Shown piece by piece: positions 569-23,975 of a DNA stretch of 64,000 nt. Every line of letters starts with the position of its first letter. The stretch's first letter is position 1. Source of the DNA: Candidatus Omnitrophota bacterium. GTDB lineage: Bacteria; Omnitrophota; Gorgyraeia; 2-01-FULL-45-10. The notes under the pieces are model-generated. The model saw only the letters and a program-made list of their open reading frames with translations, searched no databases and was not told the origin of the DNA. The stretch lies in the NCBI GenBank assembly GCA_041648975.1, contig JBAZNZ010000005.1, positions 10,332 through 74,331 of the forward strand, written 5' to 3'. Position numbers and translations under genes: made by a program.

Positions 569-2043
569 ACAGTGCCTTCTTTAGTGTCTTCGAGAAGCAC
601 GCCTTTGTCCGAAAGGGTCCTCCGTATATCATCGGCTTTCTTAAAATCTTTTTCGTTACGCGCCTTGTCTCTCTGGCTTATCAATTTTACAACATCCGCC
701 TCGTCTACCTGTCCGCCCGAAACGCTCTTTGCCAGGTCAAGCCCAAATACGAAACTTAGCTCTTTTATCAGCTTTCCTATGCCCGATATTACGGCCTTCT
801 CATCTTTTGAGAATTCGTCTTTGCCCTGCATCAACTTATTGGCATGCGTTACAAGGTCGAACAACGACGCGAACGCAAGAGGCGTATTGAAATCATCGTC
901 CATCGCCTCTTCGAATTTTTTTCTGAAATTTTCGATAGAAAATTTCATCCCGTCGCCGCGACGAATAGGAGCGGCAGAGGAACTACCTCCTATATCTTGA
1001 CTTTTCTCAACACGTCCTATCTTCTCGAAGAGAATGACAAACCGTTCCTTCTGGCTCTTCATCTCGCTTATCTTCTCTTCGGTGTAGTCGACCGGATGCC
1101 TGTAATGGGTATTAAGGAAGAGAAGCTTCAGATAATCAGGGTCACGGTATTTAGCGATAAAATTTTGAATCGAAATAAAATTACCCAGCGACTTCGCCAT
1201 CTTCTCGTTATTTATGGTCAGAAGGCCGTGATGCATCCAGTATTTCGCGAATTTCTTCCCGGCTCCTTCGGACTGCGCTATCTCGTTCTCGTGATGAGGG
1301 AATATCAGATCCAGGCCTCCGCCGTGTATGTCGAATTCATCTCCGAGGATATCGGAACTCATCGCGGAACATTCTATATGCCATCCAGGCCGGCCATTCC
1401 CCCAGGGGCTGGGCCAGGACGGCTCTCCCTCCTTTGCGCTTTTCCATAACGCGAAGTCGAGCGGGTCTTTCTTCTTCCCACCGGACGGTACGCGCGCGCC
1501 TACCTCCATCTTATCGAGCGACTGGCGCGACAGCTTTCCGTAATCCTTCGCCTTTTTTATGTCAAAATATACGTCCCTGCCCGATTCATAGGCGCATCCT
1601 TTTTTAATGAGAATCTCTATGAACTTAATCATCTTAGGAATGTACTCAGTAGCCTTCGGCTCTACGTCGGGTTTCCCTATGCCGAGAATCTCCATATCTT
1701 CACAATATGCTTTATAATATTTTTCTGCTACTTTTCGTGTCTGTTCGGCAAGTCCGCCTGATGTTTCACTGCTTTCTTTAATAAATGTATTCGATAGAAC
1801 GAACTTATTTGCCTTATCTATTATCTTATCATCTACATCCGTTACGTTCCTGACGAACTTGACCTTCAGCCCTTTATATATAAGATAGCGACGAATTACG
1901 TCGAATATGTAGGCGCTCCTGGCGTGGCCTATGTGCGGCTCGTCATATACCGTTGGACCGCAGACATACATGCCGACTTTATCAGGTTTGAGCGGGGCGA
2001 ATTCCTCTTTAGTCCTGGTGAGAGAATTGTATATGCGCATCAT
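550..2043 (-). CDS. cysS: cysteinyl-tRNA synthetase
   Basis: Class I HIGH motif (PHIGHARS) and KMAKSLGN (KMSKS); full-length, 497 aa. Confidence 0.95.
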   Translation of the reverse strand: MMRIYNSLTRTKEEFAPLKPDKVGMYVCGPTVYDEPHIGHARSAYIFDVIRRYLIYKGLKVKFVRNVTDVDDKIIDKANKFVLSNTFIKESSETSGGLAEQTRKVAEKYYKAYCEDMEILGIGKPDVEPKATEYIPKMIKFIEILIKKGCAYESGRDVYFDIKKAKDYGKLSRQSLDKMEVGARVPSGGKKKDPLDFALWKSAKEGEPSWPSPWGNGRPGWHIECSAMSSDILGDEFDIHGGGLDLIFPHHENEIAQSEGAGKKFAKYWMHHGLLTINNEKMAKSLGNFISIQNFIAKYRDPDYLKLLFLNTHYRHPVDYTEEKISEMKSQKERFVILFEKIGRVEKSQDIGGSSSAAPIRRGDGMKFSIENFRKKFEEAMDDDFNTPLAFASLFDLVTHANKLMQGKDEFSKDEKAVISGIGKLIKELSFVFGLDLAKSVSGGQVDEADVVKLISQRDKARNEKDFKKADDIRRTLSDKGVLLEDTKEGTVWRRKA

Positions 2044-2108
2044 AAGTTATAAGTTATAAGTTATAAGTTATAAGTTCCATGCTTACAACTTATAACTTAC
2101 GACTTACA
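2044..2108 (-). repeat. heptamer-repeat hairpin element (HRH-1), cysE to cysS junction
   Basis: (ATAAGTT)x5, loop ccatgctt, then AACTTATAACTTACGACTTACAAC; the 3' arm ends directly at the cysS ATG. Confidence 0.9.
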
Positions 2109-2109
2109 A

Positions 2110-2799
2110 CTATCTTTTCTCCAGTTTATCCAGCCTCTCCCTCAACTCATCCATCTCCTGCAATATTGGATCAAGGACATGTATATGGTCGAGGCCCACA
2201 TCTATCTTCCTACCTTCCTGTTTCGTTATTCTCCCGGGAACGCCCACAACGGTAGAATTAGGCGGGACATCTTTTATAACAACGGCGTTGGCGCCTATAT
2301 AGGAATTATCCCCTATCGTAATATTTCCCAGGACCTTTGCGCCGGTCCCTATTACAACGTTATTCCCGATGGTCGGATGGCGCTTGCCTTTTTCCTTACC
2401 TGTGCCGCCGAGCGTTACCCCCTGGTAGATGGTTACATTATCTCCCGTTATAGTCGTCTCACCTATGACCACGCCCATTCCGTGGTCGATAAAAAACGAT
2501 TTGCCTATCTGTGCCCCTGGATGTATCTCTATGCCCGTAAAGAACCTGCCCGTCTGCGACAACATCCTGGGCAATAACGGTATGCCGGCTTTACGTATGG
2601 CATGGGCAATCCTGTATATGACCATGGCGTGAAGTCCGGAATATGTCAACAAGACCTCGATGAAACTCGCTGCTGCCGGGTCGCGCTCAAATATGGCGTC
2701 TATCTCTTTCTTGAACACTATTGCCACAACGGCCCAGAATGTCGTGAATGCCGCAATGAGAATAAACAATACCTTCAGGCAAATAGTCATCATGGTCAC
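2110..2799 (-). CDS. cysE: serine O-acetyltransferase (short Bacillus-type CysE). The N-terminal 27-aa hydrophobic extension may be an artefact; an alternative GTG start lies near 2718.
   Basis: Hexapeptide-repeat core [28 protein letters not shown]...GKRHPTIG is colinear with B. subtilis CysE, which begins at the position matching FKKEIDAIF. Confidence 0.88.
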
Positions 2800-3272
2800 C
2801 TCTTTTCCTCCAGCATCACAGTGGCGAACGCGGCTATAGCGTCGCCTCTACCGATGGAGCCCACGCCTTCATTGGTAGTCGCTTTTATATTTATCCGCTC
2901 TTTCGGCATCCCCAATATCTCCGATATGGTCTGGCTCATCTTATCATTGAAAGGAAAGACCTTGGGTTCTTCGGCAAGGATCACTGTATCGACATTGATT
3001 ATCGTGAACTTCTTTTCCAGGACAAGTTCGGCCGCCCTTTTAAGTATCTTCCTGCTAGGCATATCTTTATACTGCGGATCCGTATCCGGGAAATGCTGAC
3101 CTATGTCTCCTAAGCCGAGCGCGCCCAGTATTGCGTCCGATATCGCGTGGATAACGACATCTCCGTCCGAATAACCTATTAAACCCTTTACATAGGGTAT
3201 CTCGACGCCGCCCAGGAATAACTTCCTATCCTCGACAAGCCTGTGTATATCGTAACCTATTCCGACCCGCAT
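2796..3272 (-). CDS. ispF: 2-C-methyl-D-erythritol 2,4-cyclodiphosphate synthase
   Basis: [12 protein letters not shown]...[19 protein letters not shown]; 158 aa. Confidence 0.95.
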
Positions 3273-3937
3273 AACAGCACCTCCGCAAGTTTCAGATCTT
3301 CTTTCGTCGTTATCTTTATATTGCGGTAAGAACCCATTATGACCTTCACCCTACCGCCTGCCATCTCTACAAGGCCAGCGTCATCCGTGGCTTTTGCATG
3401 CTTAAGCCTTCCGTACGCCTTTTGTATCAGATCCCGTCTGAATACCTGCGGCGTCTGGGCTCTGAATACCCTGTTCCTGTCGAGCGTATCCTTTATAAAA
3501 AGCCCGCTATCGACGAGCTTTACAGTATCGCTCTCAGGCACCGCAACTATACAGCCGCCTGTCTTTCTTGCCGCGCGTATGGATTTTTCTATTAAATAAC
3601 TTTCGATAAAAGGCCTTGCCGCGTCATGGATGAGGACAATATCGGCCGAAGGCCCTATTCTTTTCAAACAATTCCTCACGGACTCCGAGCGCGTCTTTCC
3701 TCCGACAACCACGTCCACTACTTTCTTAAAACCGCACTTTTTTACAAGTACCCTGAACCTCGCTACGCAGGATCTTTCGGCGGCTATTATAATACCGTCG
3801 ATCGAGGCGCAATCTTCAAGGGTCCGGAGGGAATAATATACGAGAGGTCTCGAGCCTAACAGGACAAAAGGTTTCTTCTGTCTAGAACCCAACCTTTTCC
3901 CGTGCCCGGCAGAGGGTATTATGGCTATAGTCTTCAT
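3257..3937 (-). CDS. ispD: 2-C-methyl-D-erythritol 4-phosphate cytidylyltransferase
   Basis: N-terminal IIPSAGHGKRLG nucleotidyltransferase motif; 226 aa; adjacent to ispF. Confidence 0.9.
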   Translation of the reverse strand: MKTIAIIPSAGHGKRLGSRQKKPFVLLGSRPLVYYSLRTLEDCASIDGIIIAAERSCVARFRVLVKKCGFKKVVDVVVGGKTRSESVRNCLKRIGPSADIVLIHDAARPFIESYLIEKSIRAARKTGGCIVAVPESDTVKLVDSGLFIKDTLDRNRVFRAQTPQVFRRDLIQKAYGRLKHAKATDDAGLVEMAGGRVKVIMGSYRNIKITTKEDLKLAEVLLCGSE

Positions 3938-3956
3938 TGAGGCTCACTTCGTCTTC

Positions 3957-4979
3957 CTACTTTCCTTTCCAACCGCCCCTGGGAGCGTCCTCAAGCCTTG
4001 CGAATATCATCCTTCCGGCGGAAGTCTGGAGAACGCTCGTGACTACTACCTTGGTGACCTGGCCGATGATACTCCTGGAATTATCCACGACCACCATGGT
4101 GCCGTCATCAAGATACGCAACGCCCTGGTTGTATTCCTTGCCTTCTTTGGTGATCCTGACTTCCATCGTCTCGCCGGGCAGGACTACGGGCCTGAGCGTG
4201 TTCGCAAGCTCATTTATGTTCAGCACCGCGACGCCCTGGAGCTCAGCGATCTTATTAAGGTTAAAATCGTTCGTGAAGACCTTGGCGCCTAAAAGCTTTG
4301 CCAGCTTTACGAGCTTGGCGTCCACCTCTTTTATCTCCGGGAAGTCCTCTTCCTGTATCCTGACGTCAAGCGCCGTCGATTTCTGTATCTTATTCAATAT
4401 ATCGAGGCCGCGCCTCCCGCGGTTCCTCTTGAGGGAATCCGACGAATCGGCGATCTGCTGCAACTCTTTCAACACGAAGCGAGGTATGACGATCCTCCCC
4501 TCGACGAAATGGGTCTGGAATATCTCGGCTATCCGGCCGTCGATTATCACGCTCGTGTCGAGCAGGATTATGTCGTCCTTCTTGTCCTGCCTGACGAACT
4601 TCACATAAGGCACAATAAGATTGAACTCGTCCTTACCCCTCATCGCGATTATCATCCCGAGATAACAGAATATCAATATCAGGATTATCTGGAGCGAGGA
4701 GAACATTTCAATAGACATCGGGATGAGTTTCATGACGCTGGTCAGTATCCATGCCATAAAGAACCCGAAGAAAAGCCCGAAGACAGCGGCAGACAAATTC
4801 CTTACGGAGAATCTCTTCATGCCCATCTCGACCAGGATTACAAGGAGAGCTCCGAAAAATCCTGCCACGGCTCCCGATAAGGCCCAGCTCATCCGCAGAT
4901 CTCCCAGCGTAGAACCAACGTAATAACCTGCAACGCTCGACAGGAATACAAAAAATATCCTAAGGAATATTACTGTCAT
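3957..4979 (-). CDS. yacL: membrane-anchored PIN/TRAM-domain protein (YacL-like)
   Basis: N-terminal TM helices, PIN-like core (ILLDTSVIIDGRI), C-terminal TRAM-like domain; lies upstream of ispD-ispF as in Bacillus. Confidence 0.7.
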   Translation of the reverse strand: MTVIFLRIFFVFLSSVAGYYVGSTLGDLRMSWALSGAVAGFFGALLVILVEMGMKRFSVRNLSAAVFGLFFGFFMAWILTSVMKLIPMSIEMFSSLQIILILIFCYLGMIIAMRGKDEFNLIVPYVKFVRQDKKDDIILLDTSVIIDGRIAEIFQTHFVEGRIVIPRFVLKELQQIADSSDSLKRNRGRRGLDILNKIQKSTALDVRIQEEDFPEIKEVDAKLVKLAKLLGAKVFTNDFNLNKIAELQGVAVLNINELANTLRPVVLPGETMEVRITKEGKEYNQGVAYLDDGTMVVVDNSRSIIGQVTKVVVTSVLQTSAGRMIFARLEDAPRGGWKGK

Positions 4980-4989
4980 ATATTACCCC

Positions 4990-5622
4990 TTATTCTTCGC
5001 TTCGCGGTTTGTTCAGCAGTTTCCAGGGATGCCTTTTGACATCCTCGCTGAATTCCCTGAAATTACCGGTCATGGCCTTCACGTCATTATATACTGCGTC
5101 TTCCATCAAAAGCTTGCCGACCGTGCCTTCGCCTTTTTTAAGTTTATCCACTATGGTCCTGACCGAATCGGAAAGGCTGGCCAGGTTCTCTGTGATCTTC
5201 TCCATTGGCACGGGATCCTTACCTATAAGCATCCCGTCATTCTGTACCAGCGGCTTTCCTATCGTTCCGGGCACTATCTCAAGATACTTTTCTCCGAGGA
5301 GACCGAGAGTGTTGATCGTCGCGACAGCATCCTCCTCGATATGCGTGCCTTCCTGTATCCAGACGGTCAATTCGGCCTTCGTCTGTTTGGCGGCCTCGTC
5401 ATATACTACTTTTATACCCTGGACCTGGCCGACGCCGACACCCGCAAGCCTCACTGGCGCGGCAGGCCCTATGCCGCTCGCGAAATTGAACGTCACCTTG
5501 ATAAGGTATCCATTTTTAGAGAAATTGATGTCGCCGATGGAAAAGACTATTAAAAATAATATAGCTATACCGATCAAAATAAAGATGCCGACCTTCAACT
5601 CAAATGTCCTTGTGCCTTCCAT
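4990..5622 (-). CDS. mlaD: Mce-domain protein MlaD
   Basis: N-terminal TM anchor plus Mce domain; adjacent to mlaF/mlaE. Confidence 0.8.
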   Translation of the reverse strand: MEGTRTFELKVGIFILIGIAILFLIVFSIGDINFSKNGYLIKVTFNFASGIGPAAPVRLAGVGVGQVQGIKVVYDEAAKQTKAELTVWIQEGTHIEEDAVATINTLGLLGEKYLEIVPGTIGKPLVQNDGMLIGKDPVPMEKITENLASLSDSVRTIVDKLKKGEGTVGKLLMEDAVYNDVKAMTGNFREFSEDVKRHPWKLLNKPRSEE

Positions 5623-5646
5623 TGTTACCCCCTTAAATTGACTTTT

Positions 5647-5731
5647 AGTTGTAAGTTGTAAGTTGTAAGTTGTAAGTTTTAAGCGGTAAGTAAAAATTTT
5701 TATCTTACGACTTACAACTTATAACTTACTG
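5647..5731 (-). repeat. heptamer-repeat hairpin element (HRH-2), mlaF to mlaD junction
   Basis: (GTAAGTT)x4...GGTAAGT, A/T loop, then CTTACGACTTACAACTTATAACTTAC. Confidence 0.9.
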
Positions 5732-5732
5732 C

Positions 5733-6500
5733 TTAAATCAGGTGTTCGAAATCTATCCCTTCGGTTATCGGCCCTTTACCAGTGCCCGTTATAAACTGAT
5801 GGACTATCGGATCTTTCGTATTTTTTATCTCTTCCGGTTTGCCGTTAGCTATTATCTTCCCGTTGTACAGCATGGCGATCCTGTTGGCTATCTTATAGGC
5901 GCTCGACATATCGTGCGTCACGGCTATAGATGTTACCTTGAGCTGGTTATGAAGCTCTACGATCAGGTCATTTATCGCGTCGCCCATTATCGGATCGACG
6001 CCCGTAGTCGGTTCATCATAAAGGATTATCTGCGGCCTTAGCGCGATCGCCCTGGCCAGGCCTACTCTCTTCCTCATACCTCCGGATAATTCCGCGGGTT
6101 TCTTATATTCGACATCTTTCAATCCCACGAGCGCAAGACATTCCTTGACCCTTTGTTTTATTTCCTGGCGGCTGGAATTCATATGCTCTATCATTCCGAA
6201 TGCGACGTTCTCCATGACATTCAGCGAATCGAAGAGCGCGGCCCCCTGGAAGAGCATGCCGAACTTCATACGAAGGGCGTTTAATTCCTTCTCATCCATC
6301 ACCGCAACGTCCTTACCGTCGACTATGACCTGGCCGCTGTCCGGTTTTAATAATCCTATGATATGTTTCAGGAGCACGCTCTTGCCGCATCCCGACCTTC
6401 CTATTATTACGGTCGTCTCGCCTGTATTGATGGCCAGGTTCAGGTTATCAAGCACCACGTGGCCTTCGAACGATTTGCACAGGTTAATGATTTCGATCAT
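5733..6500 (-). CDS. mlaF: ABC transporter ATP-binding protein MlaF
   Basis: Walker A GRSGCGKS and signature LSGGMRKRVGLARA. Confidence 0.85.
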   Translation of the reverse strand: MIEIINLCKSFEGHVVLDNLNLAINTGETTVIIGRSGCGKSVLLKHIIGLLKPDSGQVIVDGKDVAVMDEKELNALRMKFGMLFQGAALFDSLNVMENVAFGMIEHMNSSRQEIKQRVKECLALVGLKDVEYKKPAELSGGMRKRVGLARAIALRPQIILYDEPTTGVDPIMGDAINDLIVELHNQLKVTSIAVTHDMSSAYKIANRIAMLYNGKIIANGKPEEIKNTKDPIVHQFITGTGKGPITEGIDFEHLI

Positions 6501-6516
6501 GTTTAGCTTTCACTTT

Positions 6517-7302
6517 TTATTGGTTCATGACAAAATAGAATAATGCCGTAAAGAAACAATCGGACGCTATTATCAGTATGAAACTCGTTACAACGCTCGA
6601 CGTAGTCGCGCGCCCTACACCCTCCGCGCCGCCTTCCGCGGTCATACCTTCATAACAGGCTACTATACAGATTATTATCGCGAAGAAATAACTTTTTATA
6701 AGTCCGGTAAAAAGATCCTTATATTTAAGCGGATCCCACGTGTTCTTCATATAAAGTCCGTGGGATATACCGAGTTTATATACACCTATGATGTAACCGC
6801 CGAGTATGCCTATCATATCGGCAAATACCGTAAGGAGCGGAAGCATTATCATGAGCGCCATGAACCGGGGGACAACCAGATATTTCACGGGATTCGTGGC
6901 CAGCGTCTCAAGAGCGTCTATCTGCTCGGTAACCTTCATTGTGCCGAGTTCGGCGGTGATAGACGCTCCTACCCTGCCCGCGACTATCAAAGCCGTCAGG
7001 ACGGGACCGAGCTCCCTTGTCATCGATATGCACACCAGTGAGGCTATATACATCTCAGCGGAAAACCTCTTCATCTGATATGCGCTCTGCAGGGCGAGCA
7101 CCATTCCGGTAAAAAAGCTTATAAGAGCTACTATGGGAAGGCTGTCAACCCCTATCTTGGACATCTGTTCTGTTATCTGCTTCCTCCTCAAAGGCGGGAT
7201 AGGTATCCAGAAAAGTGTCTGCCCCATCAGTACCGAAAGCCCTCCCGCATACCTGATAAACTGCATGAAGCCGCTGCCGAGACCCTCTAATACCTTTCTC
7301 AT
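6517..7302 (-). CDS. mlaE: ABC transporter permease MlaE
   Basis: Multi-TM protein with the MlaE family pattern (TRELGPVLTALIVAGRVGASITAELGTMKVTEQIDALE). Confidence 0.85.
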   Translation of the reverse strand: MRKVLEGLGSGFMQFIRYAGGLSVLMGQTLFWIPIPPLRRKQITEQMSKIGVDSLPIVALISFFTGMVLALQSAYQMKRFSAEMYIASLVCISMTRELGPVLTALIVAGRVGASITAELGTMKVTEQIDALETLATNPVKYLVVPRFMALMIMLPLLTVFADMIGILGGYIIGVYKLGISHGLYMKNTWDPLKYKDLFTGLIKSYFFAIIICIVACYEGMTAEGGAEGVGRATTSSVVTSFILIIASDCFFTALFYFVMNQ

Positions 7303-8774
7303 CAGAATTTATCCTTATGTTCAAACCCTAAGAAATCCTCATCCTGCCCAAGCATCATCTTAAGACTTTCATGCTGATGAAGCTTATACTCGAGCTGGAC
7401 CTCGTCCGTATGCCCGATGCTTTCTCCCATCTTCTCCTCGGCGATGAATTTCTTGAAATCGAGGCTGATCACATCGTCTATCTTCTTTGTCATTCGTATT
7501 TCCTGGGCATCCTTTAGCTTTGTAGTCTCCAACACGTCCCAAGAAAGAGCCTGATCATCGTTCAGGATCTTTATTCCCGCAAAGAGATCGTTCCTGCCTA
7601 TCTTACGCAGGTCCATCTCGCCGGACAGCGTAAAGTAACCGCTCTCCCGGGTTATTCGTGAGTCCTCGATATGCATAATAGGCCCGTCACCTGTAAAACT
7701 GGCTGTCAGATATTTGAAATCCAGCGTCGCGATAGTCCCGTTGCGTATTTCCATGCGTATATCAGTTTTCAGGGTTTCCGGCTTACCTTTAAATGCGAAC
7801 TTTCCGTTCAAAGTGCCCGACAACATGGAAGAAGGATCTTTTACCCCCAGGTTGGCAAACAACCAGGTCAAGCTTACGTTATTTGCGGTAAATACGGCGT
7901 CTACGTTATAGGGTTTACTTAAAAATATTTTCGCTCGGGCTTTGACTATCTCACCGAAACTAAAATCGGGGATCTCAAGCATACCGCCTGAATAACGATA
8001 AGACGCCTTAGCGTTAAATAACGGCCTGAAATTGACCACGAGGTTTTCCGCATCCACTTCTCCTTCTACAAAGGCCTTTTTTACACCGCCCCCCGCGCCC
8101 TCTATCCTGTTCTTTAAATTCAGGTCGCATACTATATCGCATCCGTATAGTTGTATATGTTCAACCCTTATTTTGGCGTCAAGAACGCCGCTTGACGATA
8201 ACGCCCCTTTTGCTTTTAATGTGCCTGCCGCCGGACGTATCTCTATGTCAAAAGAGTCATCTTTGACCTTTCCTACAAAATCGACTTTCTCTTTATTGGG
8301 CAGATTGACGTACCCTTTAACATCGGCGTCGGCAAAGCTCCCTTCCAGCTTAACAAAACCGGTCATACCGCCGTTCTTCGTGACAAAATTTATATAAACG
8401 GAAGAGTCCCCGGATAATACATCACATACCGCGGGGCCGCCTTTTCCGTCCCTGCAAAAGACAGAGAACAGAAAATCCCATATCCTGTAGTCGGTCCTGA
8501 TGCTGTTAATATCCACGGACGAGAAGAGGAATGTCCCTTTTTTGTCCTCTATTTTTATATCATTGAAGACGAAGGGCCTGAATACGCCGCCGTCTATGCT
8601 GCCTATCGAAAAACTGACTTTATCATTAAAGGTCTTTTCGATGCCCATTTCGGCAAGATTCTTCATCTGCGGGACAAACGCTTCCATCCTGCTCTCGGCG
8701 AATACCGTCAGGCAGGTTATGAGGAGCGCCGCCAGTATAAATTTAAACCTTCTTCTCGTTCTTGAATGCCGCAT
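7302..8774 (-). CDS. hypothetical signal-anchored beta-rich envelope protein (possibly AsmA/TamB-like)
   Basis: 490-aa ORF with an N-terminal TM anchor, directly downstream of clpC and upstream of mlaE. The product assignment is weak. Confidence 0.45.
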
Positions 8775-11205
8775 CGCTTACCGTTTTGAACTCCAGATGA
8801 TCGACCTTTGCGGTTACCAGTACCCTGCCGCCTTTTTTAAAAGACCCTCTTATTATCTCCTCGGCCAGCGGATCCTCCAGGAACCGCTGTATCGTCCTCT
8901 TGAGGGGACGCGCGCCGAAAGCCTTATCGAACCCCTTATCGATCAGGAAGTTCTTTGCCTCGTCGTTAAGGTCTATCTTTATGTCTTGCTCCTTGAGCCT
9001 TGACTCGACGTCCTTTATCTCAAGCTCTACTATATGCACCAGGTCATCCCTCGTAAGGGACCTGAATACTATTATATCGTCAACCCTGTTAAGGAATTCC
9101 GGCTTGAATGCCCTTTTCACTTCGTCCAGGAGCCTCTCCTTCATACCCTGATAGGTAACGTCCTCGGCCTGCGATTTGAACCCTAAAGACCCCTGCTTCT
9201 TCAGCATCTCAGCGCCTATATTGGAGGTCATGATAATAATGGTATTCTTGAAATCGACCTTCCGCCCGAAAGAATCGGTCAGGCGGCCTTCCTCAAGCAT
9301 CTGCAGGAGCAGGTTGAATACGTCCGGATGCGCCTTTTCGATCTCGTCCAGCAGCACTACGGAATAAGGACGGCGCCTTACCTTCTCTGTCAGCTGGCCC
9401 CCTTCTTCGTATCCGACGTAACCGGGAGGCGCGCCAACGAGTCTGGAGACATTGAATTTCTCCATGTACTCCGACATATCGATCTGTATAATAGCGTCGT
9501 CGTCACCGAACATGAATTCGGCAAGAGCCCGCCCTACCAGCGTCTTCCCCACTCCGGTAGGCCCCAGGAACACGAATGACCCTATGGGCCGCTTCGGGTC
9601 TTTGATGCCCGCGCGCGAACGCCTGACGGCGTGCGCTATAGCGCTTATGGCCTCGTCCTGCCCTATGACACGTTTATGCAGGGTCGCTTCCATCTTCAGG
9701 AACTTATCCTGTTCTTTCTCTTCAAGTTTAAGGATAGGGATGCCCGTCCATTTGGATACTATAGTGGCGATATCATCCTCGCCGACTTTGGGCTCGAATT
9801 TCCCCTTTGACTCTTTCCACTCCCTTTTTATCTTGTTAAGTTCGTCTTTGATCTTGCGTTCCTCATCCCTGTACTTCGCGGCCTTCTCGAAATCCTGGTC
9901 TTTTACGGCGGATTCCTTCTCTTTTTTTACTCCCGCCATCTTGTCCTCGATATGTTTTACGTCCGGCGGCGCGGTCATAACGGAAAGCCTTGCCCGCGAG
10001 CCCGCTTCGTCCATAAGATCTATAGCCTTGTCGGGCAGGTACCTGCCGCTGATGTATCTGTCGGAAAGCTTTGCGGCAGCCTCAAGCGCCTCGTCGGTAA
10101 ATTTTACCTTGTGATGCGCCTCGTACTTGTCGCGAAGCCCTTTCAATATCTCTATCGACTCTTCAACGCTCGGCGGCTCGACCATTATCGTCTGGAACCT
10201 TCTCTCGAGCGCCGCGTCCTTCTCGATGTGTTTCCTGAATTCATCCAGGGTGGTGGCGCCTATGCACTGTATCTCACCCCTCGACAATGCCGGCTTCAAT
10301 ATATTCGAGGCGTCTATGGCGCCTTCAGCCCCTCCGGCGCCTACCAGCGTATGCAGTTCGTCTATGAATACGATCACGTCCTCGGAACGCTTTATCTCGT
10401 CCATGACGGCCTTGATCCTCTCCTCGAATTGCCCCCTGTATTTTGTGCCGGCTACCATCATAGCCAGGTCCAGGATTATCAGCCTCTTATCCTTAAGGGT
10501 CTCAGGCACATCTCCGGCTATTATCTTCTGGGCGAGGCCTTCAACGATAGCGGTCTTCCCAACGCCGGCCTCTCCCAGAAGGACGGGATTATTTTTGGTC
10601 CGGCGCGACAATATCTGTATGACGCGCTCTATCTCGTTCTTCCTGCCTATGACCGGATCGAGTTTATTGTCCTTTGCCAATTTTGTCAGGTCTCTCCCGA
10701 ACGCATCCAGAGCCGGCGTCTTCGCATGGGACACCTTCTGCCCCATCTCGTATCCGGGAATCTCCGATCCAAGCAGGTTCATGACCTCTTCTCTGACCTT
10801 TTCAAGCTCAAGCCCGAGATTCATCAATACCTGGGAAGCCACGCCTTCGCCTTCCCTGATCAATCCCAAAAGCAGATGCTCCGTCCCAATATAATTATGG
10901 CCAAGCGAGCGCGCCTCATCCATCGCAAGTTCTATGACCTTTTTTGCCTTAGGAGTAAACGGGAGGTCACCGGATATAACAGTGCTCGGGCCCGGCTGGA
11001 CGAGCTTTTCGACCTCAAGCCTGATCTTATCCGCACCCATCCCAAAGCTGGCCAGGACAGCGGCGGCAACGCCTTCGCCCTCCCTTACGAGCCCCAGCAG
11101 TATATGTTCCGTCCCTATATAATCATGATTAAACCTCTTGGCCTCCTCCTTAGCCAGGAGTATGACCTTCCTCGCTCTTTCCGTAAATCTATTGAACATT
11201 GGCAT
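8743..11205 (-). CDS. clpC: ATP-dependent Clp protease ATP-binding subunit ClpC
   Basis: Two Clp_N repeats at the N-terminus, two AAA+ modules ([15 protein letters not shown]; [15 protein letters not shown]), UVR linker; 820 aa. Confidence 0.95.
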
Positions 11206-11232
11206 GTGTAACTACCCTCCGTCTCAAGTTTC

Positions 11233-11299
11233 AGTTATAAGTTATAAGTTTTTGGTTGTAACTAAATCGCTTACAACTTACGACTTATAACTTACAACT
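11233..11299 (-). repeat. heptamer-repeat hairpin element (HRH-3), mcsB to clpC junction
   Basis: AGTTATAAGTTATAAGTT, loop, then CTTACAACTTACGACTTATAACTTACAAC. Confidence 0.9.
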
Positions 11300-12353
11300 A
11301 TTTCAGTTTTTCCTTAACCAGATCCGCCCGCTTTATATCCCTCTCGCTGGGATTCAGCGTCTTGCCCCACAATTTCTGGAGATGGCCCGGTTGCGTCAAT
11401 ATGAATAGCTCGTTCACCATCCTCCTGTCGAGGTTCTTCACTATCCCCAGATCCACGCCGAGCCGTATAGCTGAGAGAAGCGTAACGGTCTCATTGCTCG
11501 TGATTATATGCGCGTTCTTCAGCGTCCCGTAGGCCCTGGAGATCCTGTCTACAAGGGCTTCTTTGGATCTCGTCAGTATCGATTTCCGCGTCGCGTCTTC
11601 CCTGGATATCAACTGGTTGGTCACCCTTTCGATATTGTCTATCGAGTCGGCTTCGGTTATACCCATGGCAACCTGGTTCGATATCTGGAAAATATTACCC
11701 ATGGCTTCCGTGCCTTCGCCGTACAATCCCCTGATATTCAATCCTAGTTTAGCGATCGCCTGCAGTACCTTGCCTATCTGCCCGGCGAAGACAAGCGCAG
11801 GCAGGTGCAGCATAGTTGAACATCTCAAACCTGTCCCTGTATTCGTGGGGCATGCAGTAAGGTATCCCCATCTTGCGGAATATGAGTAAGAAAGCTTCTT
11901 GCTTAAGTCCGTATCTATCTCGTCTATGATCCGCCAGCATTCGAGCAGGTTCAGGCCCGACTGCATGACCTGTATCCTTAAGTGGTCCTCTTCATTGACC
12001 ATTATGCTGACTATCTCTTTGGGATCGACGATTAGCGCCTTATACTCGACGTCTTTCGCGTGCTCCGGGCTCATCAGGTGCCGTTCCACCAACAGCATCC
12101 TATCGGTCTCGTTCAGGTCCTTCAACCGCAGGAACATGGCGTCTTTAAGAAAATTACATGACCTGGCCGCGTCCCTGACCGAACCGAGGATCTCCTCAAG
12201 CTGTTTCTTGTTCGCCCAGTTCGAGAACGGGACCTTATCGAGGTTCCTCGCCAGCCTTGTGCGGGACGACATAACTATGTTGGAGCTCGGTCCCGACCCC
12301 TTCAACCATTCGCAATTCTGTCCCAGGAAATCGTCCATCTTCACCCCGCCCAT
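11298..12353 (-). CDS. mcsB: protein arginine kinase McsB
   Basis: ATP:guanido phosphotransferase signature CPTNTGTGLR; lies between mcsA and clpC. Confidence 0.9.
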   Translation of the reverse strand: MGGVKMDDFLGQNCEWLKGSGPSSNIVMSSRTRLARNLDKVPFSNWANKKQLEEILGSVRDAARSCNFLKDAMFLRLKDLNETDRMLLVERHLMSPEHAKDVEYKALIVDPKEIVSIMVNEEDHLRIQVMQSGLNLLECWRIIDEIDTDLSKKLSYSYSARWGYLTACPTNTGTGLRCSTMLHLPALVFAGQIGKVLQAIAKLGLNIRGLYGEGTEAMGNIFQISNQVAMGITEADSIDNIERVTNQLISREDATRKSILTRSKEALVDRISRAYGTLKNAHIITSNETVTLLSAIRLGVDLGIVKNLDRRMVNELFILTQPGHLQKLWGKTLNPSERDIKRADLVKEKLK

Positions 12354-12443
12354 TCCTCCCCTCGCAAACCAATCCTGACTGTTAAATCTGTATAGTCGAT
12401 ATAAAAATCTTTGCCATTATTAAGAATATATGAATGGGCGGGG
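12343..12443 (-). repeat. GC-rich hairpin (CCCCGCCC family) spanning the mcsA to mcsB junction; 13-bp perfect stem, 68-nt loop
   Basis: ACCCCGCCCATTC ... GAATGGGCGGGGT. The 5' arm follows AATGA, which overlaps the mcsA stop; the 3' arm contains the mcsB start. Confidence 0.8.
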
Positions 12444-12444
12444 T

Positions 12445-12957
12445 TCATTTTTTCTCGCCGCCGTTCTTGCTCTTCGACTCAAGTTCTTTTATCTCATCAC
12501 GGAGCTTCGCAGCCTCTTCAAATTGCTCCGCCTGGATGGCCTTTTCCATCCTCAATTTAAGCTCCTGCAATGTCCTCGTATCCTTTACGGTCTTGCCGAC
12601 CCTTAACGGCACCTTCCCGACATGCCTGTCGGCGCCGTGTATCCTTTTAAGCAAAGGAGCTAACTGCCCCTTAAAAATCTCGTAACAGTTGCCGCAGCCC
12701 AACCTCCCCGTCTTTTTAAAATCCAAAAAAGTAAACCCGCAGGTAGGGCACTTCATGATATCCGTAGATTCAGGTTCTATATTAGCCCCAAGGTCCGCCA
12801 GTCCCGCCAGGAGATCGCTCAGTCCGAAGTGCTCTTCCATCTCGCTTCCCTTTTCCTTAGCGCACCCCTCGCAAAGATGGAGTTTCGTCACCTTTTCGTT
12901 AACGATCTCTGTCAGGTGCACTGTCGCTTCATTCTTACCGCAAACGTCGCATATCAT
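12445..12957 (-). CDS. mcsA: McsA (zinc-finger plus UVR-domain activator of McsB)
   Basis: CxxC zinc-finger pairs (CDVCGKN...CEGC; CPTCGF...CGNC) and a C-terminal UVR motif (EEAAKLRDEIKELE). Confidence 0.8.
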   Translation of the reverse strand: MICDVCGKNEATVHLTEIVNEKVTKLHLCEGCAKEKGSEMEEHFGLSDLLAGLADLGANIEPESTDIMKCPTCGFTFLDFKKTGRLGCGNCYEIFKGQLAPLLKRIHGADRHVGKVPLRVGKTVKDTRTLQELKLRMEKAIQAEQFEEAAKLRDEIKELESKSKNGGEKK

Positions 12958-12958
12958 T

Positions 12959-13840
12959 TTAGTATTTCACTCCATCGGTCTTCGTCAGTTCCTTAAACCT
13001 TTCGGTAAGCTTGAGCGTAATCTCGCCCGGCTTACCGTCGCCTATCTTCCTCTCGTCTATATTCACGACCGGTATCAGCTCAGCTGCAGTCCCGGTCAGG
13101 AAGACCTCGTCCGCGCCGTAAAGATCGTCCATCTTCAGGAGTTTTTCTGTAAATGGTATATCCATGCCCTTGGCCAGGCTTATCACGGCGTCCCTTGTGA
13201 TGCCCTCCAGCGCTCCGAGGCTGACCGGCGGCGTAATGAGCTCTCCGTTCTTCACCATGAATATATTGTCTCCGGTGCATTCCGCGACATAGCCCTCATA
13301 TGTAAGCATGATCGCCTCTTCAGTACCTGATTTAATAGCGTCGATCTTGGCAAGGATGTTGTTCAGGTAATTCAGGCTCTTTATCCGCCCGTCGAGAGCC
13401 TGTGGAAGATTCCGCCGGGTAGTCGCGGTGACGATCTTCAGCCCTTTCTGGTAAAACTCTTTCGGGTAGAGGGCGATCTTATCGGTGATTATGAATACCG
13501 TCGGGATTTTGCATTTCCTGGGATCCAAACCGAGATCGCCGACCCCTCTGGTGACGACAAGCCTGATATAGGCGTCTTTAAGCGAGTTAGCTTTCAGCGT
13601 GACGATAACAGCCTCTATCATTTCGATCTTGGTAAGGGGGATCTTCAGCTCGATAGCGTCGGCAGACTTATAAAGCCTGTCAATATGTTCTTTCAGCCTG
13701 AAGACGAGGCAATTGTATGAGCGGATACCTTCGAACACACCATCGCCGTATAAAAGGCCATGGTCAAAGACCGAGATCTGCGCTTTAATCTTCTCTACAA
13801 GTTTTCCATTCAGGTATATCTTCACCCCGCCCACTCCCAA
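12959..13840 (-). CDS. ilvE: branched-chain amino acid aminotransferase (class IV)
   Basis: GDGVFEGIR...; class IV aminotransferase fold, 293 aa. The start region overlaps a GC hairpin. Confidence 0.85.
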   Translation of the reverse strand: MGVGGVKIYLNGKLVEKIKAQISVFDHGLLYGDGVFEGIRSYNCLVFRLKEHIDRLYKSADAIELKIPLTKIEMIEAVIVTLKANSLKDAYIRLVVTRGVGDLGLDPRKCKIPTVFIITDKIALYPKEFYQKGLKIVTATTRRNLPQALDGRIKSLNYLNNILAKIDAIKSGTEEAIMLTYEGYVAECTGDNIFMVKNGELITPPVSLGALEGITRDAVISLAKGMDIPFTEKLLKMDDLYGADEVFLTGTAAELIPVVNIDERKIGDGKPGEITLKLTERFKELTKTDGVKY

Positions 13841-13869
13841 ACCCCTAACCCATCATAGGATGGGCGGGG
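13825..13869 (-). repeat. GC-rich hairpin (CCCCGCCC family) in the ilvE leader/start
   Basis: Minus strand reads ATGGACCCCGCCCATCC...GGGTTAGGGGTTTGGGAGTGGGCGGGGTG. 9-bp stem with a G-tract loop. Confidence 0.75.
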
Positions 13870-13900
13870 TCCATTATCTTAGCCTTATAATAATTATATA

Positions 13901-13929
13901 AGTATATTATATAAACAATATAGTGTCAA
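13901..13929 (-). promoter_or_regulatory. consensus sigma70 promoter upstream of ilvE-mcsA-mcsB-clpC
   Basis: Minus strand TTGACA-N17-TATACT about 30 nt upstream of the ATGGACCCCGCCC hairpin. Confidence 0.6.
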
Positions 13930-13937
13930 ATGGAAAC

Positions 13938-14414
13938 CTACATTATGTGGGCGCTGCGGTTGGGTTCGGCGTACTCGATGTGCGGGTTTTGCTTCAATTT
14001 CGTCACTGCCTCTTCTACATTCATGCCTTCGGACAAGGTAACCTCGCAACTTCTATATAGCGACTTTTCTACCTCCGGCAAATCGTTGTAGGCCGCTGCA
14101 AATACCTCTTCATCGGTCATAGCCGCCGCTTCAGGGTGGTCCTTCTTATATCTAGTCACAGCAGGTTTTATCGTATGGATGCGCCTTATTTCCTTCGATT
14201 CTATTCCTGCGGATCGCAATATATCCCGCGGATCGACGCCTTCTTTAAATTTAACCAGGATCTCGCCCGGCGCGTATTGCGGGCCATTCGATTGTTCGAC
14301 GATGGCGGACGAGCCGTCTACCACCACACTGTTAACGAGATCGTTGAAAAATAGGGCAAGCGCCGTAAAACCTACAACAAGTACAACACTCTTAATTACG
14401 GTATTCGCATTCAT
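13938..14414 (-). CDS. hypothetical secreted protein resembling a stand-alone subtilase N-terminal propeptide (I9-like)
   Basis: Signal anchor, then GEILVKFKEGVDP...VEEAVTKLKQNPHIEYAEPN, a pattern typical of S8 pro-domains; no peptidase domain. Confidence 0.4.
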   Translation of the reverse strand: MNANTVIKSVVLVVGFTALALFFNDLVNSVVVDGSSAIVEQSNGPQYAPGEILVKFKEGVDPRDILRSAGIESKEIRRIHTIKPAVTRYKKDHPEAAAMTDEEVFAAAYNDLPEVEKSLYRSCEVTLSEGMNVEEAVTKLKQNPHIEYAEPNRSAHIM

Positions 14415-14417
14415 AGG

Positions 14418-15116
14418 TTAAATAATTTTTCCGTCTCTCATCATGATGCCTTCGTCGGTCCGGCGGGATATTTTCTCGTCGTGGGTCACGATGGCAAGGG
14501 CCATCTTCGACCGCGATTTCAGGTCAAACAGGAGCTCATATATCGACTCACTGGTCTTTGAATCGAGATTGCCGGTCGGTTCGTCGCATAATAGAATTTC
14601 AGGTTCGTTGATAAGGGCTCTCGCAATCGCGACGCGCTGGGATTCACCGCCCGATAATTCGCCGGGCCTGTGGTTCGCCCTACGTTCCAACCCTACCGAT
14701 TTTAAAACTTCGCTCGCCCTCTCTTTGATAGCTGATAGCTGAAAGCTGAATGCCGACAGCTTTATCAGCGCCGGCATCATAACGTTCTCCAACGCAGTGA
14801 ACTCAGGTAAGAGATGGTAGAATTGAAAAACGAATCCCACCCTCTTATTCCTGATTCGGGACCTTTCTCTATCGGAAAGTCTGTAGATATCAATGCCGTC
14901 CATGGTGACTTTCCCTGATGTAGGCCTATCCAGACCTCCAAGTATATGCAGAAGCGTCGACTTCCCCGCGCCGGACGGTCCTATGATAGCTATTGATTTG
15001 CCGTTCTTTACGCTCAGGTCTATCCCGTTCACAGCCCGGACTTCTTTTGAGCCGTTCTTATACGCCTTATGCAGGCCATATCCCATTAATAATATCTTAT
15101 CCATAGTTATCCACAA
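14418..15116 (-). CDS. lolD: lipoprotein-releasing ABC transporter ATP-binding protein LolD
   Basis: GPSGAGKSTLL, LSGGESQRVAIARAL; adjacent to a LolC/E permease gene. Confidence 0.8.
   Translation of the reverse strand: MWITMDKILLMGYGLHKAYKNGSKEVRAVNGIDLSVKNGKSIAIIGPSGAGKSTLLHILGGLDRPTSGKVTMDGIDIYRLSDRERSRIRNKRVGFVFQFYHLLPEFTALENVMMPALIKLSAFSFQLSAIKERASEVLKSVGLERRANHRPGELSGGESQRVAIARALINEPEILLCDEPTGNLDSKTSESIYELLFDLKSRSKMALAIVTHDEKISRRTDEGIMMRDGKII
14727..14769 (-). repeat. AGCTGA-type heptamer-repeat element in-frame inside lolD
   Basis: GATAGCTGATAGCTGAAAGCTGAATGCCGACAGCTTTATCAGC encodes LSAFSFQLSA, an extra segment in the short linker region relative to E. coli LolD (LLIGKKKPAEINSRA). 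Confidence 0.6.
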
Positions 15117-15143
15117 TGTAGCTGACGTTTAAACGTCAGCTAC
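15107..15143 (+). repeat. REP-A singlet with DnaA-box between lolD and lolE
   Basis: TTATCCACAATGTAGCTGACGTTTAAACGTCAGCTAC. Confidence 0.9.
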
Positions 15144-16378
15144 TATTCGTATCTCAACACCTCTATCGGATCGAGCCGCGACGCCTTGAAAGCGGGATAT
15201 ATCGCGGCAATAAGGCTAAGTAAAATACTCGAGCATATTATTACAGATATATCCTGGAGATCCAGCTTAACGGGTAACTTATCAATATAATAAATATCTT
15301 TAGGCAATGTTATGAATTTATATGTCTTAAGACACCAGCAGACGCCGACCCCCAGCAAGGCTCCGGACAACGTACCCAGCAACCCTATGATCCCGCCCTG
15401 GATAGAGAATATGGTCATCATATCCGACCTTGTAGCGCCTATCGATTTCAGTATGCCTATATCTTTCGTCTTTTCCAGAACGGTCATGATGAGGGCGCTG
15501 GCAATATTAAAGCAGGCTACCGTCACAATAAGCGTCAATATTATGAACATCACGGTCTTCTCCAGCTTTATCGCCTCAAGAAAATTCCTGTTAGAGTCCA
15601 TCCACGTCCTTACCACATAAGGAACGCCTAACTTGGCCTGAAGCTCTCTCTTCAAATCTTCCACCGCCAGAGGGTCGTCAGACCTTACCGCTATACCGCT
15701 CGCCATATCCTTGACGCCCAACAGCTCCTGCGCCGCGGTTATGTTCACATAAACTAGATTCATGTCGTATTCGTACATGCCGGAAGTGAATATACCGGTT
15801 ACCTTGAAGGATTTGCCTTTGGCATAGTTCGACGGGTTAAGGAAAAATTTATTTTCAAGGTTCGCGTTCGTTGGCGAGACCAGGGAGACTGTGTCGCCGA
15901 TCTTTACGTTCAGTTTGTTCGCAAGCTCGCTTCCCAGCACCACCGAATCGCCGTTAAGGTCCAGAGATCCGGATTTTATGTACCCGCCTATCTTCTTTAC
16001 CTTCACTTCGTCTTCGCTCACGATGCCTTTGGCCACAACGCCCATGATATTGTCGCCGCTGCGCACGAGGGCCTGGCTGTTCAGGAAATAGGCCGATGCC
16101 TCTACGTGTTTTGCGCTATTTATCGCATCGGTAAGTTCTGCGGAGGGCTTCACGCCGTATTCGGAGAGTATCTCTATGTGGGAATATGTGCCTATTATCT
16201 TCTCTTTCAGGTCTTCATCGAACCCGCTCATGACGGATATAACTATGATGAGCGCGGCTACGCCTATCGCCACCCCAAGTATCGAGATGAGGCTTACCAG
16301 AGAAATGAACTTCTCTTTAGGTTTTGCAGTGAGATATCGCAGAGCTACGAATAACTGCCAGACCATTGTTATTCTCAA
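15143..16378 (-). CDS. lolE: lipoprotein-releasing system permease LolC/LolE (FtsX-like)
   Basis: Four-TM MacB/FtsX topology with a large periplasmic loop; 411 aa. Confidence 0.8.
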   Translation of the reverse strand: MRITMVWQLFVALRYLTAKPKEKFISLVSLISILGVAIGVAALIIVISVMSGFDEDLKEKIIGTYSHIEILSEYGVKPSAELTDAINSAKHVEASAYFLNSQALVRSGDNIMGVVAKGIVSEDEVKVKKIGGYIKSGSLDLNGDSVVLGSELANKLNVKIGDTVSLVSPTNANLENKFFLNPSNYAKGKSFKVTGIFTSGMYEYDMNLVYVNITAAQELLGVKDMASGIAVRSDDPLAVEDLKRELQAKLGVPYVVRTWMDSNRNFLEAIKLEKTVMFIILTLIVTVACFNIASALIMTVLEKTKDIGILKSIGATRSDMMTIFSIQGGIIGLLGTLSGALLGVGVCWCLKTYKFITLPKDIYYIDKLPVKLDLQDISVIICSSILLSLIAAIYPAFKASRLDPIEVLRYE

Positions 16379-16388
16379 ACTCCTTAGC

Positions 16389-16470
16389 CGTAAGCTATAA
16401 GTTGTAAGCTGTAAGCTATTTTTAAAACTTAATTTATTGCTTATAGCTTAAAGCTTATGGCTTAAAGCTA
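16389..16470 (-). repeat. heptamer-repeat hairpin element, TAAGCT variant (HRH-4), lysS to lolE junction
   Basis: CGTAAGCTATAAGTTGTAAGCTGTAAGCT, loop, then GCTTATAGCTTAAAGCTTATGGCTTAAAGCT. Confidence 0.85.
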
Positions 16471-23484: not shown

Positions 23485-23493
23485 GCTAAAAGA

Positions 23494-23516
23494 TATAAGT
23501 CGTAAGTTATAAGTTA
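23494..23516 (+). repeat. half heptamer-repeat element (5' arm only) just upstream of the anti-sigma RBS
   Basis: ATAAGTCGTAAGTTATAAGTTAT followed by ATGGAGG and the ATG. Confidence 0.7.
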
Positions 23517-23528
23517 TATGGAGGAAAG

Positions 23529-23975
23529 ATGATAGATATAAAAAGTCATACGACCCATCCGACAGACGTAGAGCTTGCCGGCTTCCTCGGCAACTCGCTC
23601 GCCGCTGACGATAGAAAACGCGTTGAAACTCATATCTACGGGTGCGAGGAATGCCTTGCCAGGGTCGTTTCAGCTTATGAATCGGTCAATTCGTTCAACA
23701 AGAAAGGTCTGCCTAAAAAAAGAAAGGGTAACATTATGAATAGGATAAACCTCTATTTCGTGCTGGCCGCTATATCGTTCGCACTGTCTTTCGCGGTCCC
23801 CAGGTACTTCCTGCAGTTACTGGCAGCTACTCTGCTTTTGGGGGCAAAGTGGATAGCCGATTCAAAAACGACAAAGATGCTCGTAATGATCCATGAGGCA
23901 TGGAAAAACGGCGGCGGAAGAGAAGCTTCCAGAGTGCTAGAAAAGTTTGAATCGGCGTATAAGGGAAGGTTATAG
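23529..23975 (+). CDS. putative membrane anti-sigma factor (zinc-binding HxxxCxxC type)
   Basis: HIYGCEEC motif, one TM helix, immediately downstream of the ECF sigma gene. Confidence 0.6.
   Translation: MIDIKSHTTHPTDVELAGFLGNSLAADDRKRVETHIYGCEECLARVVSAYESVNSFNKKGLPKKRKGNIMNRINLYFVLAAISFALSFAVPRYFLQLLAATLLLGAKWIADSKTTKMLVMIHEAWKNGGGREASRVLEKFESAYKGRL

Follow-up and report, generated by a model that had tools for sequence, protein, structure and literature searches.

The DNA analysed here, referred to as the window, is a stretch of 64,000 nucleotides (nt) from a Candidatus Omnitrophota bacterium (NCBI GenBank assembly GCA_041648975.1, contig JBAZNZ010000005.1, positions 10,332 to 74,331 of the forward strand), and our subject is four long hairpins, each built from tandem heptamers, that lie between cistrons of a gene cluster in it. 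The cluster runs lysS-lolE-lolD-...-mcsA-mcsB-clpC-...-mlaE-mlaF-mlaD-PIN/TRAM-ispD-ispF-cysE-cysS. Its McsB found its best match, at 100% identity, among proteins of Candidatus Omnitrophota metagenome-assembled genomes, and the gene order is kept in eight relatives with McsB identities of 74-87%. An earlier note on this DNA had pointed to the four elements and named the flanking genes correctly; these genes all lie on the minus strand.

Tandem Repeats Finder reported period-7 arrays in both arms of every element, which confirms the positions given in that note. Element 1 (2042-2111, minus strand) occupies the cysE/cysS junction and has its arms at 2042-2076 and 2082-2111; element 2 (5645-5735, minus strand) occupies the mlaF/mlaD junction, with arms at 5647-5691 and 5704-5729. 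Element 3 (11231-11301, minus strand) lies between mcsB and clpC (arms 11233-11250 and 11270-11299) and element 4 (16386-16469, minus strand) between lysS and lolE (arms 16386-16417 and 16434-16469). Copy numbers at period 7 ranged from 2.6 to 6.4 across the eight arms. All four elements have the form (TAAGTTR)n-loop-(YAACTTA)n, element 4 being built from the variant unit TAAGCTR/YAGCTTA, and loop sequence, unit order and unit number differ among all four copies. The description of the loops as A/T-rich does not fit element 1, whose loop is CCATGC.

The repeats stand out clearly from the rest of the window. The two-unit pattern TAAGTTRTAAGTT, allowing up to 2 mismatches, gave 34 matches against 2.3 expected, a number that no shuffle reached. 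Among the 22 spacers of at least 35 nt, lag-7 autocorrelation was 0.52-0.78 in the four element spacers only and 0.16-0.37 in the others. A long hairpin was predicted on both strands of each element (z of -5.7 to -8.7 in seven of the eight folds), the weakest being the sense strand of element 4 (z -2.8), and the mRNA-strand stems are AT-rich and 26-32 bp long. The common architecture that the earlier note had described is thus borne out.

Read as mRNA, each element has the upstream gene's stop codon in or at the first unit of its 5' arm. In element 1, the UAG of cysE falls within a degenerate unit, AUAGUUG, and overlaps the first pair of a 29-bp stem (minimum free energy -32.6 kcal/mol, z -8.7); about four heterogeneous UAAGUYR-type units, the loop and five perfect UAACUUA units follow, and the AUG of cysS comes 1 nt past the stem with no Shine-Dalgarno (SD) sequence. 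In element 2, mlaF ends with the TAA of the first unit (TAAGCAG), its UAA lying within the lower part of a 32-bp stem, and an SD (GGGGG) and the mlaD AUG stand 16 nt past the stem. The 26-bp stem of element 3 begins at the U of the mcsB UAG, with SD and AUG 26 nt later; the ancestral SD spacer is kept 3' of this element, as ACTTGAGACGGAGGGTAGTTACAC in the window against ACTTAAGGAGAGTTACAG in the relative L124. In element 4, the lysS frame enters the 29-bp stem by 11 nt. Because the frame enters the first units of the element before it meets TAA, LysS gains five residues, DSFKP (16455-16470), compared with its counterpart in the relative L123, which ends ...QLKAES.

The 3' arms of all four elements point towards the following start codon, which lies 7-26 nt away behind an SD in elements 2-4 and 1 nt away in element 1. 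The arm that contains G is the 5' arm in each case. These 5' arms are C-poor and hold at least one stop codon in every reading frame, and the 3' arrays are G-poor and free of ATG, GTG and TTG.

The earlier note had placed the elements inside one long operon. The region's best promoter match is a near-consensus TTGACA-17-TATACT on the minus strand (13929-13901). It precedes the aminotransferase-mcsA-mcsB-clpC block, and every relative examined has conserved it. With a conserved internal promoter match the cluster is not demonstrably one operon, and it probably comprises at least two transcription units. A scan found no terminator- or promoter-like site inside the four elements, where the stems are followed by sequences such as AACUUAUGAUG and CUAAAAGUC. 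A promoter reading of the repeats themselves (three TTGTAAG and one TTATAAG, resembling TTGACA-N16-TATAAT) was rejected since no element contains a promoter-like site.

The same junctions in related genomes

We compared the four junctions with those of the eight relatives, using the stop-to-start gap in nt. In the window the gaps are 88 (lysS/lolE), 92 (mcsB/clpC), 110 (mlaF/mlaD) and 66 (cysE/cysS). In the same order, they are 135, 199, 93 and 93 in L123 (McsB 87%); 19, 18, 15 and a 4-nt overlap in L124 (80%); 0, 26, 45 and an overlap in L127 (79%); and 8, 31, 45 and 7 in L129 (74%). L126 (79%) has 105 at lysS/lolE, filled by an unrelated inverted repeat, then 38 and 49, its cysE/cysS junction not being comparable. 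In two relatives it is lysS/lolE that is not comparable: for the remaining three junctions L128 (78%) has 22, 20 and an overlap, and L125 (77%) has 121, 19 and 79. For the P0015 contig (82%), where we had gene calls only, the gaps are 14 at lysS/lolE and 33 at mcsB/clpC.

In L124 and L126 to L129, junctions that lack hairpins have gaps of 8-49 nt or a 4-nt overlap. At cysE/cysS the ancestral state is a 4-nt stop/start overlap, ATGA or GTGA. On the evidence of these sequences, the comparison shows that the ancestral junctions were tight and that the hairpins are a derived state.

The long spacers of L123 and L125 are mostly hairpins too, yet they consist of short tandem units unrelated to those of the window: AAAAGGT/CTTTTAC, AGCGTAT/CTATACG, GTTGNNN/CAACNNN, GCGATTA/TAATCGC and the 8-mer TAAGTAAT/ACTTAATC. 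At least five unrelated heptamer families occur at equivalent junctions within the L123 genome alone. Although the families differ between spacers, both arms of every spacer are drawn from one family.

Comparison of filled with empty sites revealed no target-site duplication; the stop codon stands on one side of the insert and the old SD spacer on the other. The copies share neither conserved termini nor a conserved loop, and no transposase or RAYT (IS200/IS605-like) gene was present among the gene calls of the loci examined, which include 64-82 kb of this genome. In our view it is the comparison with relatives that decides against a conserved RNA and against a mobile element alike.

Other palindromes were seen in the same genomes. 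L123 carries a non-heptamer inverted repeat of about 100 nt, CCAGCACCTTCT...AGAAGGTGCTGG, twice, at 15148-15255 and at 20553-20645, with one copy at cysE/cysS, and the repeat at lysS/lolE of L126 (6561-6665) is a further non-heptamer inverted repeat of about 100 nt, CCCGTTACATCTCC...GGAGATGTAACGGG. Cistron junctions in this Omnitrophota lineage seem to be generally open to palindromic inserts. In the window, the lolE/lolD spacer (15105-15142) contains another kind of element, in which a perfect palindrome of 24 nt, TAGCTGACGTTTAAACGTCAGCTA, precedes CATTGTGGATAACT. L128 has a related sequence, TTGTAGGGGACGTTTAAACGTCCCCTACAATGTGGATAACT, at its lepA/signal peptidase junction (5461-5525), and the two may belong to a small family of dispersed hairpins that share a conserved 3' tail.

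Heptamer arrays elsewhere in the window and in other phyla

The list of four elements, all of them real, missed three further arrays that belong to this family or to a related one. The first is a single-arm array, TAAGTCG TAAGTTA TAAGTTA, at 23490-23518 on the plus strand, between an ECF sigma factor gene and a putative anti-sigma gene. It lies immediately upstream of the SD and ATG of the plus-strand open reading frame (ORF) 23529-23975 and reads TAAGTT towards them, which is the minority orientation. The second, a single CAACTTA array at 57386-57419 on the minus strand, lies inside the ORF 56350-57612 and encodes 12 residues that form part of a loop in a membrane protein of the O-antigen ligase family. 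The corresponding stretch of the L123 homologue is ELTTYNLQLTTF, likewise translated from a CAACTTA array; in more distant homologues the loop is shorter and unrelated. The third array lies in lolD (14726-14761, minus strand). Its sense strand consists of GCTATCA-type units, and three of these make an in-frame insertion of 21 nt, that is 7 residues: LSAFSFQ in the window, LYAIRYT in L123 (8130-8160) and nothing in the LolD of L124. At the matching codons L123 has GCTATAC-type units, and GCTATAC also occurs in its own mlaF/mlaD hairpin.

The arrays in lolD and in the O-antigen ligase gene thus stay at fixed sites while the unit sequence drifts between the window and L123, and both in-ORF arrays lie in the stop-free orientation. 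Paired hairpins account for four of the six arrays of the TAAGTTR family in the window, and the sub-pattern TAAGTCG-TAAGTTR is common to five of the six.

The earlier note had suggested a search for the repeat in the whole genome and in related metagenome bins. The exact three-unit TAAGTTR pattern is present in at least 120 species-representative genomes, and a variant pattern in at least 117 metagenome contigs. The matches listed include Bacteroidota (about 45 loci), Poribacteria, Patescibacteria, Omnitrophota, Cyanobacteria, Proteobacteria, Acidobacteriota, Planctomycetota, Elusimicrobia and Firmicutes, with one Methanobrevibacter. Array statistics were taken from 1.9 Mb of TAAGTTR-matching loci of many phyla, drawn from these matches. 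Period 7 dominated, with 469 arrays against 77 of period 6, 78 of period 8 and 56 of period 9. Slippage, which the earlier note suggested, is a reasonable origin. These loci also held 136 distinct heptamers outside the TAAGTT family.

Polarity was assessed by orienting the arrays as TAAGTT and counting the gene edges that abut the left and the right side. In the genome loci, gene ends divided 25:6 (left:right) and gene starts 29:5. The metagenome replicate gave 30:8 for gene ends and 25:14 for gene starts, and other heptamer families, oriented with their G-rich strand, gave 24:11 and 23:13, respectively. Nearly half of the neighbouring period-7 array pairs (48 of 109) were related as reverse complements. 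In the inverted pairs the G-arm came first in 37 and the C-arm in 7, compared with 16 to 10 for unrelated neighbours. This bears on the claim that the four elements share one orientation relative to transcription. As palindromes, they read (TAAGTTR)n...(YAACTTA)n on both strands, so the orientation itself means little; what does hold is the order of the arms, with the G-arm 5'. The rule that the G-rich strand faces away from the nearest gene is followed by all four elements and by the cross-phylum loci. Departures from the intergenic location or from the polarity rule in the window are the array at 23490 and the two in-ORF arrays.

A partner arm is present for only about 7% of TAAGTTR arrays overall, whereas pairs predominate in Omnitrophota. 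Two other Omnitrophota species (loci L064 and L032) share the layout stop, (TAAGTTR)n, loop, (YAACTTA)n, (SD) ATG, and L032 lacks the SD.

Some loci were more elaborate. In three Poribacteria loci (L090, L098 and L105) a TAAGTTA array is followed by a CTCTTGTGGCAG-like motif and then CCACAG, with degenerate TAACTGA or CAACTGA units about 90 nt beyond the array. In L008, L023 and L040, too, TAAGTTA is separated from degenerate complementary units by a long, sequence-rich "loop". Loci of the Poribacteria type suggest a composite element with a structured core between two heptamer arms. One viral contig, the only one found with TAAGTTR/AACTTAY pairs (IMG/VR UViG_3300011231_000004, locus L131), has them clustered within about 220 nt (6879-7096) in both arm orders.

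Proposed origin and effect of the hairpins

The reading that we favour, to which we would assign a probability of roughly 0.62, is that the elements are convergent heptamer pairs that grew by slippage, were filtered by translation, and now modestly tune translational coupling or are near-neutral. The arrays would have arisen in place, within very short or overlapping cistron junctions, and would have grown by replication slippage in steps of 7 nt, each arm being homogenised separately. Complementarity of the two arms at the level of the unit family could come from hairpin-templated (quasi-palindrome) repair or from selection for pairing.

Translation, in turn, would set the order of the arms. 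None of the three stop codons has a C, and each of the three start codons has a G. Behind a gene, a C-poor arm would be harmless or even useful, and in front of one a G-poor arm would make no spurious starts. The G-arm-first order would then be the only one compatible with translation at both edges of a spacer, and we infer that it prevails across phyla for this reason. Another cause for the polarity can be put forward as speculation: a C-rich arm that emerges second would be paired at once and so hidden from Rho.

With regard to effect, since the stem begins at the stop codon, the terminating ribosome would have to melt the base of this 26-32 bp helix. The stem of element 1 would hold the UAG and the SD-less AUG 1-2 nt apart, mimicking the ancestral ATGA overlap, and it may preserve or tune termination-reinitiation. 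The elements probably tune the translational coupling of neighbouring genes modestly or preserve it in a near-neutral way; they would serve neither termination nor a conserved RNA function.

Several observations weigh against this interpretation. There was no repeat-number polymorphism: the three assemblies that contain the region are identical and probably derive from one strain, so that slippage is an inference here and not an observation. By itself it would not account for the preference for 7 nt, for the recurrence of TAAGTTR in at least a dozen phyla or for the use of one unit family in both arms of each spacer. The polarity bias at gene starts is weak in the metagenome replicate (p = 0.11), the array at 23490 breaks the polarity, and the argument from start and stop codons is our own. 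A simpler proposal, that two independent arrays merely meet in a spacer, was rejected as the whole story, as the arms share one family and inverted pairs are strongly enriched.

One alternative is that the hairpins are selected RNA elements, serving as RNase III processing sites, barriers to 3'-exonucleases or modulators of differential translation, as is thought for repetitive extragenic palindromic (REP) sequences. The stems are nearly perfect and sit exactly between cistrons, and the layout recurs in three Omnitrophota species; the matched arms and the enrichment of inverted pairs would also fit, as does the finding that most heptamer repeats of Xanthomonas are transcribed (Rehm et al. 2015, PLoS One, PMC4692102), in a study that found no function for them. 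However, the hairpins are missing at the same junctions in five relatives and made of unrelated units in two, and no compensatory changes link the arms; element 1 has five perfect units in one arm and heterogeneous units in the other. Sense and antisense folds are about equally stable (the sense fold was better in only 6 of 10 hairpins) and A.C mismatches are present on the mRNA strand of elements 2 and 4, so the asymmetry between G.U and A.C pairs gives RNA-level constraint no support. At the Rfam gathering score only two tRNAs were found in the window and the elements matched no family; a permissive search returned only sub-threshold hits to models of eukaryotic miRNA precursors, a generic hairpin resemblance, and no bacterial family. 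We consider the RNA-level role proposed in the earlier note unlikely for these reasons. A co-occurring nuclease, for which that note had proposed to look, was not found, the PIN-TRAM gene of the cluster being present in relatives both with and without hairpins.

Another possibility is that the heptamers are multimeric sites for S1, a cold-shock protein or another RNA- or single-stranded DNA-binding protein that regulates translation initiation. Such binding, by S1, Csp or CsrA, was suggested for TAACTGA repeats (MacGregor 2015, Front Microbiol, PMC4679880), from which the 3' arm, (TAACTTA)n when read towards the start codon, differs by one base. Arrays across phyla end 0-15 nt from start codons, there is no SD in element 1 or in the L032 element, and according to a preprint on Nostoc the deletion of heptamer repeats near start codons alters the regulation of a reporter. 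UAACUU is also shared with the T7 gene 10 epsilon enhancer, UUAACUUUAA (PMC9590205), a resemblance only, which we offer as a lead. On the other hand, a sequence-specific binder cannot explain the five or more unrelated families at equivalent junctions of L123, the hairpin form would pair the proposed single-stranded site, and three of the four window elements have a normal SD outside the array. Protein binding is thus quite improbable as the explanation.

A bolder interpretation, which we regard as a long shot, is that heptamer hairpins with a fixed G-arm-then-C-arm order are a general, sequence-independent punctuation of bacterial gene boundaries, produced or maintained by a lineage-specific activity. 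This activity would be a property of replication or repair, or a structure-recognising protein, found only in heptamer-rich genomes, and the hairpins could be used for termination-reinitiation coupling, for ribosome stalling at stops or for shielding C-rich RNA from Rho. If this were true, the recurrence of TAAGTTR, the matched arms and the patchy presence among close relatives would reflect that activity instead of neutral slippage.

Transposition of a REP-like element or a miniature inverted-repeat transposable element (MITE) into intergenic sites is very improbable and was rejected. Several copies do lie within 16 kb, the TAAGTCG-TAAGTTR sub-pattern is widely shared among the TAAGTTR-family arrays, and presence varies between relatives. 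Against this, unit number and order differ from copy to copy with no conserved ends or loop, the window copies are not near-identical as those of a MITE would be, target-site duplications are missing, neither a transposase nor a RAYT gene turned up in the clusters examined, and relatives have different heptamers at the same sites, with arrays staying fixed as their units drift. Finally, two explanations are refuted within the limits of sequence analysis: strong stem-loops between genes might suggest terminators or attenuators, but the stems are AT-rich and, in agreement with the earlier note, no U-tract follows and no terminator-like site lies within; and an assembly artefact does not fit element 3 being identical base for base in Logan SRR8542065 and NCBI GCA_028715235.1, element 4 in the latter, and the window sequence being contained in ENA contig ERZ27247363:k141_914292.

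Part of the interest of the window lies in its junctions. Repeats can enter an overlapping ATGA stop/start junction exactly, between essential genes such as cysS, lysS and clpC. With the stop codon in the first unit, and in one case no SD, these junctions offer clean natural tests of how termination-reinitiation works across a stem. Arrays also persist at fixed sites, including the 21-nt in-frame insertion in an ORF, while their unit sequence turns over.

Comparison with known repeats

REP sequences and the related BIME (REPIN) elements of enterobacteria and pseudomonads are intercistronic imperfect palindromes that form mRNA hairpins able to affect stability. Liang, Rudd and Deutscher reportedly found in 2015 that REPs lower translation of the upstream gene when they lie no more than about 15 nt from a stop codon. 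The window elements are likewise imperfect palindromes between cistrons. REPs, however, share a family sequence that is conserved and move by means of RAYT transposases, whereas no core is conserved among the window elements, which consist of tandem 7-mers whose unit differs between relatives.

The earlier note did not recognise a described repeat family. The four elements can nevertheless be assigned to a known class, the intergenic heptanucleotide simple-sequence repeats, and are not a new family. Heptanucleotides are the most abundant class of long simple-sequence repeats in prokaryotes and slippage has been proposed for them (Mrazek 2007, as cited in PMC4679880 and PMC4692102). The present case sharpens an existing question and opens no new one. 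Cyanobacterial STRR heptamers were described by Mazel et al. (1990, as cited in the same two papers). As far as these surveys are represented there, the window repeats resemble theirs in period 7, sporadic occurrence among genomes and a mainly non-coding location, and differ in that those surveys cover neither hairpin pairs at cistron junctions nor Omnitrophota.

The TAACTGA direct repeats of marine Beggiatoaceae, Cyanobacteria and Bacteroidetes (PMC4679880) come close to the 3' arms. Of 170 sets, 147 face a start codon; the usual distance to it is 1 nt, and a ribosome-binding site is usually missing. Units vary inside an array, in-ORF copies lie in the stop-free orientation, and the repeats are absent from close relatives, whose spacers are shorter. 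The window repeats share the direction towards start codons, the variation of units inside an array, the stop-free in-ORF arrays and the shorter spacers of relatives, and their 3' unit TAACTTA is one base from TAACTGA. Even so, TAACTGA is not the repeat unit here: the units are TAACTTA or CAACTTA, with a single TAACTGA in element 3 (TCAGTTA on the plus strand at 11231). Only one of the 170 TAACTGA sets in BOGUAY is inverted, compared with the predominance of pairs in the window, where most elements also keep their SD.

A close parallel is with the GGGAATC repeats of Xanthomonas and the GGGGAYT (GGGGA(C/T)T) repeats of Nostoc (PMC4692102). About 90% of these are intergenic, including an intercistronic example at pecE/pecF, and their G-rich strand faces away from the nearest gene. 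Convergent arrays, the majority arrangement, were described as able to form stem-loops or cruciforms; Xanthomonas has 70-75 convergent inverted pairs per genome, and sister species have arrays of varying length and sequence between the same genes. The window elements are equally 7-nt tandem units in convergent inverted pairs that vary between relatives at the same junction, and both convergent pairing and polarity are thus already published for another unit. Unlike GGGAATC, however, TAAGTTR is AT-rich and cannot form a G-quadruplex, so the G-quadruplex rationale does not apply to it; and because this non-G-rich unit shares the convergent pairing and the polarity relative to ORFs, G-quadruplex formation cannot be the general explanation. 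The host is also an Omnitrophota bacterium, and the stop codon of the upstream gene lies within the first unit. What the window adds to the class is a unit without G-quadruplex potential, Omnitrophota as a new phylum and, at junctions that once overlapped, a geometry in which the first unit holds the stop codon.

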